Assembly (NCBI RefSeq): GCF_003334305.1
Contig: NZ_QOWS01000046.1
DNA from: Escherichia coli
Lineage (GTDB): Bacteria > Pseudomonadota > Gammaproteobacteria > Enterobacterales > Enterobacteriaceae
Reading direction: 5' to 3' (one strand)
DNA: 7,574 nt
Shown here: positions 1-7,396 of the stretch, in pieces
Layout of the letters: every line of letters begins with the position of its first letter
Position numbering within the stretch: position 1 is the first letter of the stretch
Made by a program: the position numbers and the translations under genes
Notes under the pieces: model-generated
Database searches by the model: none
Told to the model about the DNA's origin: nothing
Seen by the model: only the letters and a program-made list of their open reading frames with translations

Positions 1-77
<77 letters not shown>

Positions 78-112: not shown

Positions 113-147
<35 letters not shown>

Positions 148-170: not shown

Positions 171-994
171 TCACTGAGTCAGCCCAACAAAGCGACCCGC
201 CTTGATATAAATCCCAGGCTTCAGGTGCCCAACATACTGTAACTGCGTTTCTGGCTTAAACGCAGAGACATCACCAATACGCATATGCATCAGATCGGCA
301 GGGCTAATCCAGCCCGATTGCGCCAGTGTAAGTGGATGCCCGGCTTTGGCAAAGGCATCCGTGACAAATTCCGAACAAAACCACGACTTTTTGTCTCCTT
401 CGCCCACACTGCTTAACTGCGCTTTCGCCAGGCCGCTGACGCACTTTGGCGAAAATCCTCGGAGAACGGATTCAGTGAGCACATCTGGCGAGTCACCATA
501 AAGGGAATAAATTCGACAATGCCGCGATAGTTATAACCGCTATCTTTGATTTTATTGGCAAACGCGGTGATATCTGTGGCTTGTTGCGGGGTAAGATCCG
601 GGACTCGTAAGACGAAAAGCTTATCACTATGCTTCATCGCTTTTTTAAGGGAAACAATCTGGACGCCAGCGCCTGTCGCTTCTGCAACGTTATTATCACC
701 CAGAAAGATTGCAACGTGACTCACAGAGGAAGTGCTGAAGACGCGGATTCCAAATGAGGTTACCCCAAGGCTTGAGGAGAACAGCAAATCGCCGGGTTTG
801 AGATCAGGTGCCGTTATTTCTTTTATTGATTGTTCGGTGAAAGAGCTTTGATGCTGGAATTTGACAGCCCATGTTTTTGCCTCGGCATCTACTGCTGTGG
901 CTGATGGGTCTGGCTGGCTGATATCAACGGTACAAGCCGAAAGTAAAAGAAAGCTGGGGAGAAACAGGCGGCAGTACGCCTTTGGTTTATCCAT
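171..994 (-). pseudogene. yaeF: yaeF-like lipoprotein (permuted NlpC/P60-type putative peptidase), interrupted by a frameshift in this sequence
   Basis: Two overlapping minus-strand ORFs in different frames (413..1048 and 171..482). The upstream one starts MDKPKAYCRLFLPSFLLLSAC (signal peptide plus lipobox LSAC) from ATG at 992-994 and stops at TAA 413-415. The downstream one carries the Cys motif WFCSEFV and runs to the stop at 171-173. His-containing and Cys-containing segments fall in separate frames. Span 171..994 is 824 nt, not a multiple of 3. Confidence 0.8.
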
Positions 995-1010
995 TTTATA
1001 CAATCCATGT

Positions 1011-1038
1011 AAAAAAAGGGCCCTGAAATTCAGGACCC
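1011..1038 (-). terminator. Rho-independent terminator of proS
   Basis: Read on the minus strand: GGGUCCUGA-AUU-UCAGGGCCC, a 9-bp stem with one G-U pair and a 3-nt loop, followed directly by U7 (plus-strand a7 at 1011-1017). It begins about 10 nt downstream of the proS stop. Confidence 0.8.
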
Positions 1039-1047
1039 TTTCTGGCA

Positions 1048-2766
1048 TCAGCCTTTAATCTGTTTCACCAGATATTCGACGATGTCACCAGTCTTAATTA
1101 ACTGTTTCTCGCCGTTGCGACGATATTTATATTCGATATCGTCGTTGTCGAGGTTACGGTCGCCCAGCACAATAGTGTGCGGAATACCGATCAGTTCCAT
1201 ATCAGCAAACATCACGCCCGGACGCTCTTTGCGGTCATCCAGCAGCACTTCGATACCTTGTGCACGCAGTTCGCTGTACAGTTTCTCAGCAAGCTCTTGT
1301 ACGCGGAAGGATTTGTGCATGTTCATCGGCAGAATCGCCACCTGGAACGGCGCGATAGCGTCAGGCCATACGATGCCTCGTTCGTCGTAGTTCTGCTCAA
1401 TCGCCGCAGCTACCACACGCGTTACCCCGATACCGTAGCAACCCATCGTCAGGATTTGGTTACGGCCATCTTCACCCTGTACGGAGGCTTTCAGTGCTTC
1501 GGAGTACTTGGTACCCAGCTGGAAGATGTGACCAACTTCGATACCACGTTTGATCAGCAGCGTACCCTGGCCATCCGGGCTTGGATCGCCAGCCACCACG
1601 TTACGGATATCTGCAACTTCCGGGGTAGCGACATCGCGATCCCAGTTGATGCCGAAGTAGTGTTTACCATCGATGTTAGCACCAGCAGCGAAATCACTCA
1701 TCGCCGCAACGGTACGGTCAATCACCACCGGAATCGGCATGTTTACCGGACCCAGTGAACCCGGACCGGCTTTAACCACGGCACGAATTTCTTCTTCGGT
1801 CGCGAAAGTCAGCGGGCTTGCAACCTGCGGCAGTTTTTCTGCTTTAACTTCGTTCAGCTCGTGATCACCGCGCACCAGCAGCGCAACCAGCGGGAAGCTA
1901 CTGCCTTCAACCGCTTTAACCAGCAGAGTCTTAACCGTTTTCTCAATCGGCAGATTGAACTGTTCAACCAGTTCCGCGATGGTTTTCGCGTTCGGCGTAT
2001 CAACCAGCGTCATTTCCTGGGTAGCAGCAGCGCGCGGTTCTTTCGGCGCGATAGCTTCTGCCAGTTCAATGTTCGCTGCATAGTCAGAGGTGTCGGAGAA
2101 GACCACATCGTCTTCACCGCTCTGCGCCAGCACCTGGAATTCGTGAGAGGCGCTGCCGCCGATAGAACCGGTGTCGGCTTGTACGGCGCGGAAATCCAGC
2201 CCCATGCGGCTGAAGATTTTGCTGTAGGCCGCATACATTGCATCGTAGGTTTCCTGCAGGGATTCCTGAGAAGTATGGAAAGAGTAAGCATCTTTCATCA
2301 GGAATTCGCGGGAACGCATGACGCCGAAACGCGGACGCACTTCGTCGCGGAACTTGGTCTGGATCTGATAGAAGTTCAGCGGCAGCTGTTTGTAAGAGCT
2401 AAGCTCGTTACGAATCAGGTCAGTGATAACTTCTTCATGAGTTGGGCCGAGTACGAACGGACGCTCGCCACGGTCAACAAAACGCAGCAGTTCCGGACCG
2501 TACTGTTCCCAACGACCACTCTCTTGCCACAAATCAGCTGGCTGAACCACCGGCATCGACACCTCGATCGCACCGGCGTTGTTCATCTCTTCACGCACGA
2601 TGTTTTCGACTTTTTTCAGAACGCGCACGCCGGTCGGCAGCCAGGTATATAACCCGGAGGCCAGCTTGCGGATCATCCCGGCGCGCAGCATCAGCTGATG
2701 GCTGATCACCTCGGCGTCGGCAGGTGTCTCCTTGAGAGTGGAGAGCAGGTATTGGCTAGTACGCAT
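1048..2766 (-). CDS. proS: Prolyl-tRNA synthetase (class II aaRS with INS editing domain), 572 aa
   Basis: The 590-aa ORF contains the recognisable ProS sequence starting [20 protein letters not shown] at an internal ATG (2764-2766), giving 572 aa. The 18 upstream in-frame codons are treated as non-coding leader. Confidence 0.96.
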
Positions 2767-2877
2767 GTTGTTACGGTTCCAGTTGGAAGGTAGAACAGGC
2801 TCAAGGCGAGCCTGGGACAAAAAAAAGTGATTTAGTTTACCAGTGCAAAAGAAATGTCAAAAGAGAAGGGCGTGAAT

Positions 2878-3585
2878 TTAACGCGGTTCCAGCGCAAAGA
2901 CTTCAAAACCTGCGTCGGTGACGCGCCAGCGAACGTTAAAATCATGTAGCCAGACGGCATAGGTTTTGCCCGTTTCCTCACCTTTACGATAGGCCGGGCG
3001 TGGGTCCTGCGCCAGTACTTCGCGGATAAACAGCGTTAACTGCGGATAACGCTTCTCCAGCGTCAAAAGCTGCTTTTCGACCTCTGCGGTAAAACTCACC
3101 GCCATCTCTGCCGCTGGCGCACTTTGCGCATAGCTGGCACTGGCATCGGGAAGCGATTCGGCAAAGGGGAGATACGGTTTGATATCCACTACCGGCGTAC
3201 CATCGACCAGATCCAGACTGCCGAGCTTCAGAATCACGCTGTCTTTATGGCAAACAACCTCTTTCAGCTCTACCAGCGACATACCAATTGGGTTAGGGCG
3301 GAAAGTAGAGCGTGTTGCGAAAACCCCCATTCTGGCGTTACCGCCGAGGCGCGGTGGACGCACAGTCGGACGCCAGCCGCCTTCCATCGTTTGATGAAAG
3401 ACGAAAAGGATCCATAAATGGCTGAACGCTTCCAGGCCGCGAACGGCGTCGGCCTGGTTGTAGGGAGCAATGAGATGCAGTTCGCCGTTGGCGCTTTTTA
3501 CCAGACCTGGCTGGCGCGGAACGGCGAATTTTTCTTTATAGGGCGAGCGAATAACGCCTATTTGCTCGAACTGGAAACTGCTCAT
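2878..3585 (-). CDS. trmO: tRNA (adenine37-N6)-methyltransferase TrmO (formerly YaeB/TsaA), 235 aa
   Basis: ORF translation MSSFQFEQIGVIRSPYKEKFAVPRQPGLVK... recognised as E. coli YaeB/TrmO with matching length. Its ATG overlaps the rcsF stop (ATGA). Confidence 0.94.
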   Translation of the reverse strand: MSSFQFEQIGVIRSPYKEKFAVPRQPGLVKSANGELHLIAPYNQADAVRGLEAFSHLWILFVFHQTMEGGWRPTVRPPRLGGNARMGVFATRSTFRPNPIGMSLVELKEVVCHKDSVILKLGSLDLVDGTPVVDIKPYLPFAESLPDASASYAQSAPAAEMAVSFTAEVEKQLLTLEKRYPQLTLFIREVLAQDPRPAYRKGEETGKTYAVWLHDFNVRWRVTDAGFEVFALEPR

Positions 3586-3986
3586 TTCGCCGTAATGTTA
3601 AGCGCAGAGCCGATACATACAGCCTGACGATAGCAGCCTGGCGTACCGCTGGTGACTTCGCAGCTATGCAGTAATACCGCATTGGCCTTCATTTTCGAGG
3701 CGTTGATTTGCATCCGCTTACGCGCGGTTGGAATGCTCGGCGGAGAGTCCTGATTAGAGGCCTGGCAAGAGTCGCCACTGACTTCACCGAGATCGCGGAA
3801 CGGTTTGCCGACTAATTCTTCTGCATTGGTATAAATTCGGACCGGCGTGGCGCGCGGCGCTTTCGGTTTTGCAGGCTCCGCTTTCGGCTGGGGTGCAGTG
3901 CTTTGAACGGGTTCGACAGGGGATCTGCTTAACATGGAACAGCCGCTTAGCATGAGTGCTACTAAACAGATCGGTAAAGCACGCAT
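3582..3986 (-). CDS. rcsF: Outer-membrane lipoprotein RcsF (Rcs envelope-stress sensor), 134 aa
   Basis: ORF MRALPICLVALMLSGCSML... with lipobox LSGC, a Pro/Lys-rich linker and a C-terminal Cys-rich domain. RBS GAGGA lies 8 nt upstream of ATG at 3984-3986. Recognised as RcsF. Confidence 0.95.
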   Translation of the reverse strand: MRALPICLVALMLSGCSMLSRSPVEPVQSTAPQPKAEPAKPKAPRATPVRIYTNAEELVGKPFRDLGEVSGDSCQASNQDSPPSIPTARKRMQINASKMKANAVLLHSCEVTSGTPGCYRQAVCIGSALNITAK

Positions 3987-4048
3987 AGTATTTCCTCAAT
4001 GTATGATCAAAACGTCAATATTGAATCAGGAGCTTGTAAAAATGACAA

Positions 4049-4066
4049 GACGGGCAAGCGCCCGTC
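4049..4066 (-). terminator. Probable intrinsic terminator downstream of metQ (end of the metNIQ operon)
   Basis: Minus-strand hairpin GACGGGC-GCUU-GCCCGUC (7-bp GC-rich stem) followed by UUGUCAUUUUUA, about 38 nt after the metQ stop. The U-tract is interrupted, hence moderate confidence. Confidence 0.5.
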
Positions 4067-4103
4067 CTGAATGATATTACAAATTGTGGAAACAGCCTAA
4101 AAA

Positions 4104-4919
4104 TTACCAGCCTTTAACAGCGCCGCCGTTAAACACTTTGTTTGCTGCTTCGTAAACTTCATCAGACTGATAAGCCTGGACGAATTTCTTCACGTTCTCG
4201 GCGTCTTTGTTATCTTCACGCGTTACGATCAGGTTTACGTACGGGGAGTCTTTATCTTCGACAAAGATACCGTCTTTCGCTGGAGTCAGGCCAATCTGGC
4301 TGGCATAGGTGGTATTGATAACTGCCAGAGCGATTTGCGCGTCGTCCAGAGATCGAGGCAGCTGCGGTGCTTCCAGCTCAACAATTTTCAGATTTTTTGG
4401 GTTCTCAACAACATCAAGAACGGTCGGCAGCAGGCCAACGCCATCTTTCAGTTTGATCAAGCCCACTTTTTGCAGCAGCAGCAGTGAACGACCAAGATTA
4501 GTTGGATCGTTTGGCACGGCAACCTGCGAACCATCCTGCAGTTCATCCAGTGATTTGATTTTCTTGGAGTAACCAGCAATCGGATAAACAAAAGTGTTGC
4601 CTACTGCGACCAGTTTGTAGCCACGATCTTTCAGTTGCTGATCAAGGTACGGTTTATGCTGGAAGGCGTTGGCGTCGATATCGCCTTTGCTCAATGCTTC
4701 GTTTGGCAGAACATAGTCGTTGAAGGTTACCAGCTCAACGTCCAGGCCATATTTGTCTTTCGCAACTTTCTGCGCGACTTCTGCTACCTGCTGTTCGGCA
4801 CCAACAATCACGCCGACTTTAATGTGGTTTGGATCTTTTTCATCCTGACCGCAGCCTACCAGTGCCAGTGATCCAATCAGGGCTCCCACTGCCGCAAAGG
4901 TTTTGAATTTGAACGCCAT
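4104..4919 (-). CDS. metQ: D-methionine ABC transporter substrate-binding lipoprotein MetQ (NlpA family), 271 aa
   Basis: ORF MAFKFKTFAAVGALIGSLALVGCGQDEK... with signal peptide and lipobox cysteine. Strong RBS AAGGAA upstream. Recognised as MetQ with matching length. Confidence 0.96.
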   Translation of the reverse strand: MAFKFKTFAAVGALIGSLALVGCGQDEKDPNHIKVGVIVGAEQQVAEVAQKVAKDKYGLDVELVTFNDYVLPNEALSKGDIDANAFQHKPYLDQQLKDRGYKLVAVGNTFVYPIAGYSKKIKSLDELQDGSQVAVPNDPTNLGRSLLLLQKVGLIKLKDGVGLLPTVLDVVENPKNLKIVELEAPQLPRSLDDAQIALAVINTTYASQIGLTPAKDGIFVEDKDSPYVNLIVTREDNKDAENVKKFVQAYQSDEVYEAANKVFNGGAVKGW

Positions 4920-4958
4920 ACCTTATTCCTTCTTCAATTATTTATGTTGTGTTGAACG

Positions 4959-5612
4959 TTACTTGCGAGTGACAGCCCGGACGATGCGGTCGCCTGCGAA
5001 CTGAATTAAATAAACCAGAATGACCAGCAATACCAGTACCGTATTCATCACCGTCGCGTTATAGCCGATGTAGCCATACTGATAGCCAATCTGACCTAAA
5101 CCACCGGCACCGACTGCACCACCCATCGCGGAATAACCGACCAGGGTAATCAGGGTGATAGTTGCCGCATTCACCAGACCCGGCAATGCTTCCGGTAACA
5201 GCACTTTACGGACGATCTGCATCGGCGTGGCACCCATTGCACGGGAAGCTTCAATTAACCCGGTTGGGATCTCCAGCAGAGCGTTCTCGACCATACGGGC
5301 AATAAACGGTGCTGCACCAACGGTTAACGGAACAATCGCTGCCTGCAAACCAATCGATGTACCGACAATAACGCGGGTAAACGGAATCATCCATACCAGC
5401 AAGATAATGAACGGGATGGAACGGAAAATGTTCACAATCGCAGAAACGGTACGATACAGCTTCGCGTTAGCAATAATTTGCCCCGGGCGCGTAACATAAA
5501 GCAGGACGCCGACCGGCAGACCAATCACAAAGCCAAAAAATCCGGATACGAAGGTCATTGCCAGCGTTTCCCATACGCCACGAACCAGCAACCACATCAT
5601 CGGCTCAGACAT
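4959..5612 (-). CDS. metI: D-methionine ABC transporter permease MetI, 217 aa
   Basis: Hydrophobic multi-[33 protein letters not shown]... Start ATG overlaps the metN stop by 8 nt. Recognised as MetI with matching length. Confidence 0.95.
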
Positions 5613-6636
5613 AACCCAGTACCTCTACTTTTACATGGTGTTCCTGCAGCCAGGCAATGGCGGCTTGCGTATCTTGTTGTGTGCCGTGCATTTCAGTCAG
5701 CATGATGCCGAACTTAACGCCACCGGCGTAATCCATCTGCGCGCTAATAATGTTGTTGTTGACGTTGAAACGACGCGCGGTTTCAGAAAGCAGCGGGGCA
5801 TCGACCGATTGACCGGTAAACTCCAGGCGCAACATCGGCACGCAGTCAGTAAATGGCTCCGCTTGCAGACGTTCCTGGTAATCTTCCGGGATATCCAGAT
5901 GCAGGGTCGACTGAATAAACTTCTGCGCCAGCGGCGTTTTCGGATGCGAGAACACTTCACTTACCGTGTCCTGCTCGATCAGTTCGCCATTGCTGATGAC
6001 CGCCACGCAATCACAAATACGCTTCACAACGTCCATTTCGTGGGTGATCAACAGAATCGTCAAACCCAGACGGCGGTTAATGTCTTTCAGCAGTTCGAGA
6101 ATAGAACGTGTCGTTGCCGGGTCCAGCGCGCTGGTGGCTTCATCACACAGCAATACTTTGGGATTGCTGGCTAATGCACGGGCAATCGCCACACGTTGTT
6201 TCTGCCCACCGGAAAGATTCGACGGGTAGCTATCATGCTTATCGCCAAGACCAACCAATGACAGCAATTCCGTCACGCGACGTTTGATCTCGTCTTTCGG
6301 TGTGTTGTCCAGCTCCAGCGGCAGAGCCACGTTGCCAAAAACAGTACGCGAAGAGAGCAGGTTAAAATGCTGGAAAATCATACCAATCTGGCGGCGAGCT
6401 TTGGTCAACTCGGATTCTGACAGCGTGGTCAGTTCCTGGCCATCGACCAGCACGCTACCCTCGGTTGGGCGCTCCAGCAGGTTTACACAACGTATAAGCG
6501 TACTCTTACCCGCGCCTGAGGCACCGATAACGCCATAAATTTGTCCAGCTGGCACATGCAGGCTGACGTTGTTCAACGCCTGGATGGTGCGGGTGCCCTG
6601 GTGGAACACTTTGGTGATATTCGAAAGTTTTATCAT
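5605..6636 (-). CDS. metN: D-methionine ABC transporter ATP-binding protein MetN, 343 aa
   Basis: Walker [13 protein letters not shown] signature LSGGQKQR, Walker [12 protein letters not shown], and a C-terminal regulatory extension. Recognised as MetN with matching length. Confidence 0.96.
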
Positions 6637-6710
6637 TGATTATTTATTATCGTCATTAAGTTAGTCGTGGCATTTCGAATGCCTGAAACGGGCAACGCCG
6701 TCAATGAAAT

Positions 6711-6742
6711 GGATGTTAAGGCATCCAGACGTCTAAATCAAT
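6711..6742. promoter_or_regulatory. MetJ operator (met box) region in the metN promoter
   Basis: Perfect met-box octamer AGACGTCT at 6727-6734, flanked in 8-bp register by degenerate copies (aggcatcc, 5/8; ggatgtta, 4/8). It lies about 90 nt upstream of the metN start codon. Confidence 0.55.
6713..6741 (-). promoter_or_regulatory. Candidate sigma70 promoter of metNIQ
   Basis: On the minus strand: -35 TTGATT (6736-6741), 17-bp spacer, -10 TAACAT (6713-6718). The perfect met box lies inside the spacer, consistent with repression by occlusion. Confidence 0.4.
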
Positions 6743-6823
6743 CAGGTTTATGCGAAGAGCACTTTCTTGCAGGTCGAAACATGCGATACTAGCGTCACAT
6801 GCCTTATTAAGGAGCTATAAAAG

Positions 6824-7396
6824 GTGGCGAAGAGCGTACCCGCAATTTTTCTTGACCGTGATGGCACCATTAATGTCGAGCACGGCTATGTCCATGAGAT
6901 CGACAACTTTGAATTTATCGACGGTGTTATTGACGCCATGCGCGAGCTAAAAAAAATGGGCTTTGCGCTGGTGGTAGTAACCAACCAGTCTGGCATTGCT
7001 CGCGGTAAATTTACTGAAGCGCAGTTTGAAACGCTGACCGAGTGGATGGACTGGTCGCTGGCGGACCGCGATGTCGATCTGGATGGCATCTATTATTGCC
7101 CGCATCATCCGCAGGGTAGTGTTGAAGAGTTTCGCCAGGTCTGCGACTGCCGCAAACCACATCCGGGGATGCTTTTGTCAGCACGCGATTATTTGCATAT
7201 TGATATGGCCGCTTCTTATATGGTGGGCGATAAATTAGAAGATATGCAGGCAGCGGCTGCGGCGAACGTGGGAACAAAAGTGCTGGTGCGTACGGGTAAA
7301 CCTATTACGCCTGAAGCAGAAAACGCGGCGGATTGGGTGTTAAATAGCCTGGCAGACCTGCCGCAAGCGATAAAAAAGCAGCAAAAACCGGCATAA
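6824..7396 (+). CDS. gmhB: D-glycero-beta-D-manno-heptose-1,7-bisphosphate 7-phosphatase GmhB (HAD superfamily), GTG start
   Basis: ORF (M)[24 protein letters not shown]... with HAD motif I DRDGT. RBS AGGAG at 6810-6814, 9 nt upstream of GTG at 6824. Stop TAA at 7394-7396. Recognised as GmhB/YaeD. Confidence 0.93.

Follow-up and report, generated by a model that had tools for sequence, protein, structure and literature searches.

The window (the whole stretch of 7,574 nt that was analysed) was found to carry on its minus strand a copy of the Escherichia coli gene yaeF in which the reading frame is broken by the loss of a single base (Table 1). In the ORF list the locus appears as two minus-strand ORFs, 413..1048 and 171..482, which lie in different frames and share a stretch of 70 nt (413–482), as had been reported in a preliminary description of this DNA. 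The former, of 211 aa, begins at an ATG upstream of position 994, where the ATG start of YaeF is annotated. Translation gives MDKPKAYCRLFLPSFLLLSAC...SVSHVAIFLGDNNVAEATG... in the upstream frame and ...KKSWFCSEFVTDAF...GLTQ* in the downstream frame. The motifs previously assigned to the two frames were read in these translations, namely the lipobox LSAC (within MDKPKAYCRLFLPSFLLLSAC) and the segment SHVAIFLGD in the upstream frame, and SWFCSEFV in the downstream frame. Judged by eye on the translation, FLLLSAC with Cys21 fits the lipobox pattern [LVI][ASTVI][GAS]C, and the product is predicted to be a lipoprotein. The length of the gene from start to stop is one nucleotide below that of yaeF in K-12 MG1655 (b0193; NP_414735.4; 825 nt, 274 aa), which agrees with the shortfall calculated in the preliminary description for a protein of the K-12 length.

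The position of the gene is orthologous to that of yaeF elsewhere, with proS directly upstream in the window and the order proS, yaeF, nlpE found in identical and related genomes; in some of the compared genomes a copy of IS621 separates yaeF from nlpE. The left end of the window belongs to such a copy. Positions 1–77 match strain SE11 just beyond the IS621 transposase gene, and in strain A7 this gene ends 34 nt before the base that corresponds to base 1, while strains lacking the element at this site (e.g., E2863) part from the window left of base 67. A palindromic element of the REP type lies just downstream of yaeF and probably accounts for the whole-window search having matched a median of 30 places in each genome; in K-12, about 45 extra nt directly after the yaeF stop form a further REP-like unit. 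On the other side of the gene a terminator-like hairpin follows proS. No Shine-Dalgarno sequence was seen before the yaeF ATG, and no sigma-70-like promoter was found in a scan of positions 1–1300, which gave matches at chance level only. When the window was scanned with Rfam over its full length, nothing reached the gathering threshold.

Table 1. Features of the yaeF locus and its surroundings in the window.
Feature	Position	Strand	Description	Basis
Outer end of IS621 insertion (IS110 family)	1..66		between nlpE and yaeF	
REP-type palindromic element	113..146	minus	GCCGGATGCGGCGTAAACGCCTTATCCGGCCTAC	
yaeF pseudogene	171..994	minus	824 nt, ATG at 994 to TGA at 171–173	ORF list, sequence, alignment
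Downstream ORF	171..482	minus	103 aa if GTG at 482 is the start; bases 171–444 are in the original YaeF frame, residues 185–274	
Cys207 codon (TGT), catalytic	375..377	minus	downstream of the break, out of the start-codon frame	SWFCSEFV aligned with EYICSEFV of 3kw0 (Cys154, PMC3142127)
Frame open from the yaeF start	413..994	minus	193 aa: YaeF residues 1–183 and 10 out-of-frame residues (SASAAWRKRS), TAA at 413–415	
1-nt deletion	445..446	minus	C of codon 184 (CAG, Gln) absent between 446 and 445	alignments to intact alleles
Glu105 codon (GAA), polar third residue of the triad	680..682	minus	upstream of the break	aligned with Glu64 of 3kw0 (PMC3142127)
His93 codon (CAC), catalytic	716..718	minus	upstream of the break	SVSHVAIF aligned with SMFSHTGII of 3kw0 (His49, PMC3142127)
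Signal peptide of lipoprotein	932..994	minus	ends in L-S-A-C; Cys21 codon at 932–934	read from translation
Terminator-like hairpin and T7 run after proS	1011..1041	minus	ends 17 nt before the yaeF ATG; unreported by the promoter/terminator scan	
proS, tsaA, rcsF, metQ, metI, metN, gmhB	1048..7396		intact, as expected	

The lesion was located by aligning the yaeF of the window first with four alleles, two of them frameshifted and two intact, and then in a set of eight sequences in all. The intact alleles came from K-12-like, B2 and other backgrounds (a K-12-like allele, JJ1886, strain 205 and strain 4012). A single gap column was obtained, at gene nt 550, with CGC CAA CAG TGC in the intact alleles against CGC CAA -AG TGC in the window (intact CGCCAACAGTGC, window CGCCAAAGTGC). 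The net deletion of 1 nt which had been placed somewhere within 413–530 is thereby pinned to the junction 445/446. The site that had been put forward for it, the run of four A at 452–455, proved to be the wrong one. This run (T4 on the minus strand) is identical in all aligned alleles, with the gap five bases further on, and the missing base is the second C of CAACAG, a site with no homopolymer in the intact allele. When the C is re-inserted, a 274-aa protein is restored.

The repaired protein was found to match the NCBIfam equivalog model NF008552 (YaeF family permuted papain-like enzyme) end to end with 534.5 bits (residues 1–274 of 274; curated cutoff 279 bits), which bears out the naming of the gene as yaeF. 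As encoded, the N-terminal fragment reaches 336.4 bits (residues 1–184 on model positions 1–184) and the C-terminal fragment 184.5 bits (model positions 180–274), the latter being under the cutoff. The Pfam family PF05708 (Peptidase_C92) also matches the repaired protein (E = 2.9e-8), and a weak match to YiiX was seen in NCBIfam. Xu et al. (2011; PMC3142127) described the family of YaeF as circularly permuted NlpC/P60 enzymes whose N-terminal subdomain contains the His and a polar residue and whose nucleophile Cys is found close to the C-terminus. In BcPPNE (3kw0) the triad consists of His49, Glu64 and Cys154 (PMC3142127). A phmmer search of YaeF against the PDB gave no more than a marginal match to 3kw0 (E = 0.11), which was used solely to place the catalytic motifs. 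In this alignment, weak overall, His93, Glu105 and Cys207 of YaeF fall exactly on the 3kw0 triad once the numbering of the PDB chain is corrected for its 19-residue tag. The two proteins are of the same superfamily and have the same permuted order of His, polar residue and Cys, but are distant paralogues, and the copy of YaeF in the window is disrupted.

All three triad codons are present in the window in the permuted order His, Glu, Cys, but not in a single uninterrupted frame, on account of the deletion at codon 184 and the stop at 413–415. The break parts the lipobox (Cys21), His93 and Glu105 from Cys207. Since the His precedes the Cys in the permuted NlpC/P60 fold, both halves are required in one chain, a point which had been assumed in the preliminary description and which is upheld by the published fold (PMC3142127) and by the alignment to 3kw0. 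With Cys207 out of frame and the stop codon ahead of it, the locus is to be regarded as a pseudogene of the YaeF family and not as a functional member. In the intact orthologues (b0193 of K-12 and, in strain 503025, the gene for WP_001297208.1) the C at nt 550 is present, one frame of 274 codons is open, and His93, Glu105 and Cys207 lie in one chain.

The distribution of the deletion was found to be wide. An exact 69-mer across it was present in 1197 of 5332 complete E. coli genomes (more than one fifth), and the non-identical matches sampled in this search all span 70 bases, so that the extra base is present there. With a repaired query of 326 nt, about 13 of 60 evenly spaced matches carried the deletion, and the same query, in a spread sample, put the intact version of the window's own yaeF allele at fewer than about 90 genomes. 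A query of 911 nt around yaeF found matches of 100% identity in many complete genomes of E. coli. Over its full length the window is matched at 100% identity by strain A7, and two dozen further strains among the matches listed are near-identical to it. Carriers of the deletion include IAI1, SE11 and O26:H11 11368, classical strains of phylogroup B1 whose genomes were finished in the Sanger era. The site is intact in K-12 and its derivatives, JJ1886, CFT073, O157:H7 and O55:H7.

The locus is also known to the databases in its broken form. The RefSeq annotation (PGAP) bears the "frameshifted" flag in every carrier that was opened (E2863, SWYH.B349aT, Ec387, IAI1, SE11, O26:H11 11368, and A7). 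In A7 the name given is "YaeF family permuted papain-like enzyme, frameshifted", with bounds that correspond exactly to 171..994, and likewise in E2863, IAI1 and SE11. When the window is set beside the RefSeq pseudogenes ECIAI1_RS00980 (IAI1), ECSE_RS00990 (SE11), ECO26_RS01010 (O26:H11 11368) and AOY58_RS04245 (A7), the same position between proS and nlpE, the same length of 824 nt and the same flag are seen; there is no substantive difference, and the window holds a further copy of this allele. Fragments of 193, 211 and 103 aa stand in the databases as E. coli proteins in their own right, with contig numbers from hundreds to at least 1000, under the names "NlpC/P60 family protein" (193 aa), "putative lipoprotein" (211 aa), and "hypothetical protein" or "Lipoprotein" (103 aa, e.g., BAG75718.1), and in current RefSeq they are merged into one pseudogene. 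The exact sequence of the repaired protein is likewise deposited on at least 1000 contigs. A literature search on yaeF returned papers at the level of the family and none on this pseudogene. The yaeF frameshift is, in sum, an already annotated, real but ordinary and lineage-wide lesion.

These data bear on the two origins between which the preliminary description had left the choice, pseudogenisation and a homopolymer sequencing error. A miscall or other sequencing or assembly error, with an intact 825-nt yaeF in the organism itself, would be in keeping with single-base indels being the commonest assembly error and with the AAA run which the deletion has left in the window. Against it, the intact allele reads CAACAG at this site, outside any homopolymer, and the same deletion is shared by no fewer than 1197 independent complete genomes, which come from many laboratories, among them the three B1 carriers named above, with A7 and others identical over the full window. 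Such an error is extremely improbable, and it was dropped as an explanation on the grounds of genome distribution and sequence context. The identical deletion in 1197 genomes, the RefSeq flags and the B1 carriers together indicate that the lesion is inherited and lineage-wide and no miscall; of the two origins, pseudogenisation is the one that stands.

The yaeF genes of IAI1 and SE11 are identical to the 824 nt of the window, and that of O26:H11 11368 differs at one base. The K-12-like allele differs from the window by five substitutions and the indel. In strain 503025 yaeF is intact (WP_001297208.1) and identical at all 824 shared positions, the presence of the C being the sole difference. 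This was the only genome opened that has an intact allele of the window type, and its neighbouring gene nlpE is flagged as a pseudogene (positions 4260–4969 of the 503025 locus). The insertion of IS621 and the frameshift are independent of each other, since IAI1 and E2863 are frameshifted without the element and 503025 has the element with yaeF intact. In Ec387 the deletion allele was observed with ten substitutions in its first 130 nt (positions 366–500 of the Ec387 locus; gene nt 23–129), five of them in common with the B2-type allele, and beyond these 130 nt the gene is identical to that of the window. This pattern suggests a recombination breakpoint inside the gene, and the occurrence of the deletion together with a recombinant 5' end fits a single origin followed by recombination. 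Secondary damage is absent, which fits a young pseudogene. The same absence leaves a test of selection without power, and the lack of further decay is insufficient on its own as proof of lost function.

The intact remainder of the gene could also be read as a sign that the frameshift is bypassed, by a -1 slip of the ribosome at T_TTT_C (451–456) or A_AAG (422–425) which would yield a 274-aa enzyme with a few residues changed (e.g., RQQ to SPK) and leave the gene partly functional. A shift of -1 is the direction required, both frames are open over 413–482, and the zero frame of the overlap contains both of these single-tRNA slippery tetramers. However, inspection of the zero-frame codons revealed no canonical X_XXY_YYZ heptamer within the overlap, and the downstream RNA (window 375–455) is no more stable than shuffled sequences (z = -0.25). 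The flanks are equal in the intact alleles, so that nothing appears to have evolved to favour slippage. In addition, the split state is limited to one lineage of E. coli, with strains of A, B2 and E intact at the site. Unless stimulated, ribosomes generally slip at a low rate on tetramers of this kind. The genes of E. coli with programmed -1 frameshifting of the dnaX type likewise have two overlapping frames which a -1 shift joins; unlike these, yaeF has no slippery heptamer and no significant downstream structure, its split is not conserved beyond one lineage, and an intact single frame is the norm in homologues outside that lineage. Programmed frameshifting at yaeF is therefore unsupported, and a bypass that keeps the gene partly functional is given a very slight probability.

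A second way in which function might be retained is as a split gene, with the two ORFs translated apart and the fragments reassembling or each acting alone. Gene finders predict a protein for each fragment, both have database entries, and the break lies between the N-terminal (His, Glu) and C-terminal (Cys) subdomains of the fold (PMC3142127). On the other hand, the sequence upstream of the GTG at 482 has no Shine-Dalgarno sequence, and the translation of the downstream ORF has no signal peptide, so that the lipoprotein half would be exported and the Cys half left behind in the cytoplasm. With the halves in different compartments, an enzyme made of two pieces is unlikely. The score of the Cys half (184.5 against a cutoff of 279 bits) and the treatment of the locus as one pseudogene in RefSeq also speak against this reading, to which next to no likelihood is attached.

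The explanation which we hold with great confidence is that yaeF in the window is a genuine inherited loss-of-function allele. Intact YaeF is a lipoprotein of 274 aa and of the circularly permuted NlpC/P60 type (YaeF/YiiX, Pfam Peptidase_C92), with an active site composed of His93 and Glu105 from the N-terminal subdomain and Cys207 from the C-terminal subdomain. The C of codon 184 would have been lost in an ancestor common to a large lineage of E. coli, to which reference strains of phylogroup B1 belong. Translation from the normal start would then leave the frame after residue 183, add 10 unrelated residues and terminate at 413–415, and the product, if stable, would be a lipoprotein fragment of 193 aa that lacks the nucleophile Cys and is hence catalytically inactive. 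As judged from the sequence, it is likely that no active enzyme is made. The loss of yaeF appears to be tolerated and may be neutral or mildly beneficial. A knockout that is incomplete is considered highly unlikely. In that case low-level -1 slippage at the same tetramers would still supply a certain amount of full-length YaeF, or the 193-aa fragment, exported with its His and Glu, would have a non-catalytic role (e.g., lipid binding), and the very successful B1 group would have retained the allele since a reduced or altered activity is advantageous. Understanding of the function of the bacterial members of the family is poor. Their substrate has been proposed to be lipid-related (PMC3142127; PMC7387801; PMC12994826), and a hydrophobic S1 pocket has been proposed for the BcPPNE group (PMC3142127).

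Beyond correct annotation, the importance of a loss-of-function allele of yaeF is little. For annotation, the ORFs of 193/211 aa and 103 aa belong together as one pseudogene, which some database entries still count as separate proteins. The single-base deletion is a handy marker of its lineage, and the natural pair one base apart, the intact yaeF of 503025 and the broken yaeF of the IAI1 type, could serve as an isogenic comparison. YaeF, an uncharacterised permuted NlpC/P60 lipoprotein enzyme, is dispensable for a lineage which makes up more than one fifth of sequenced E. coli, and this provides a small clue to its function.
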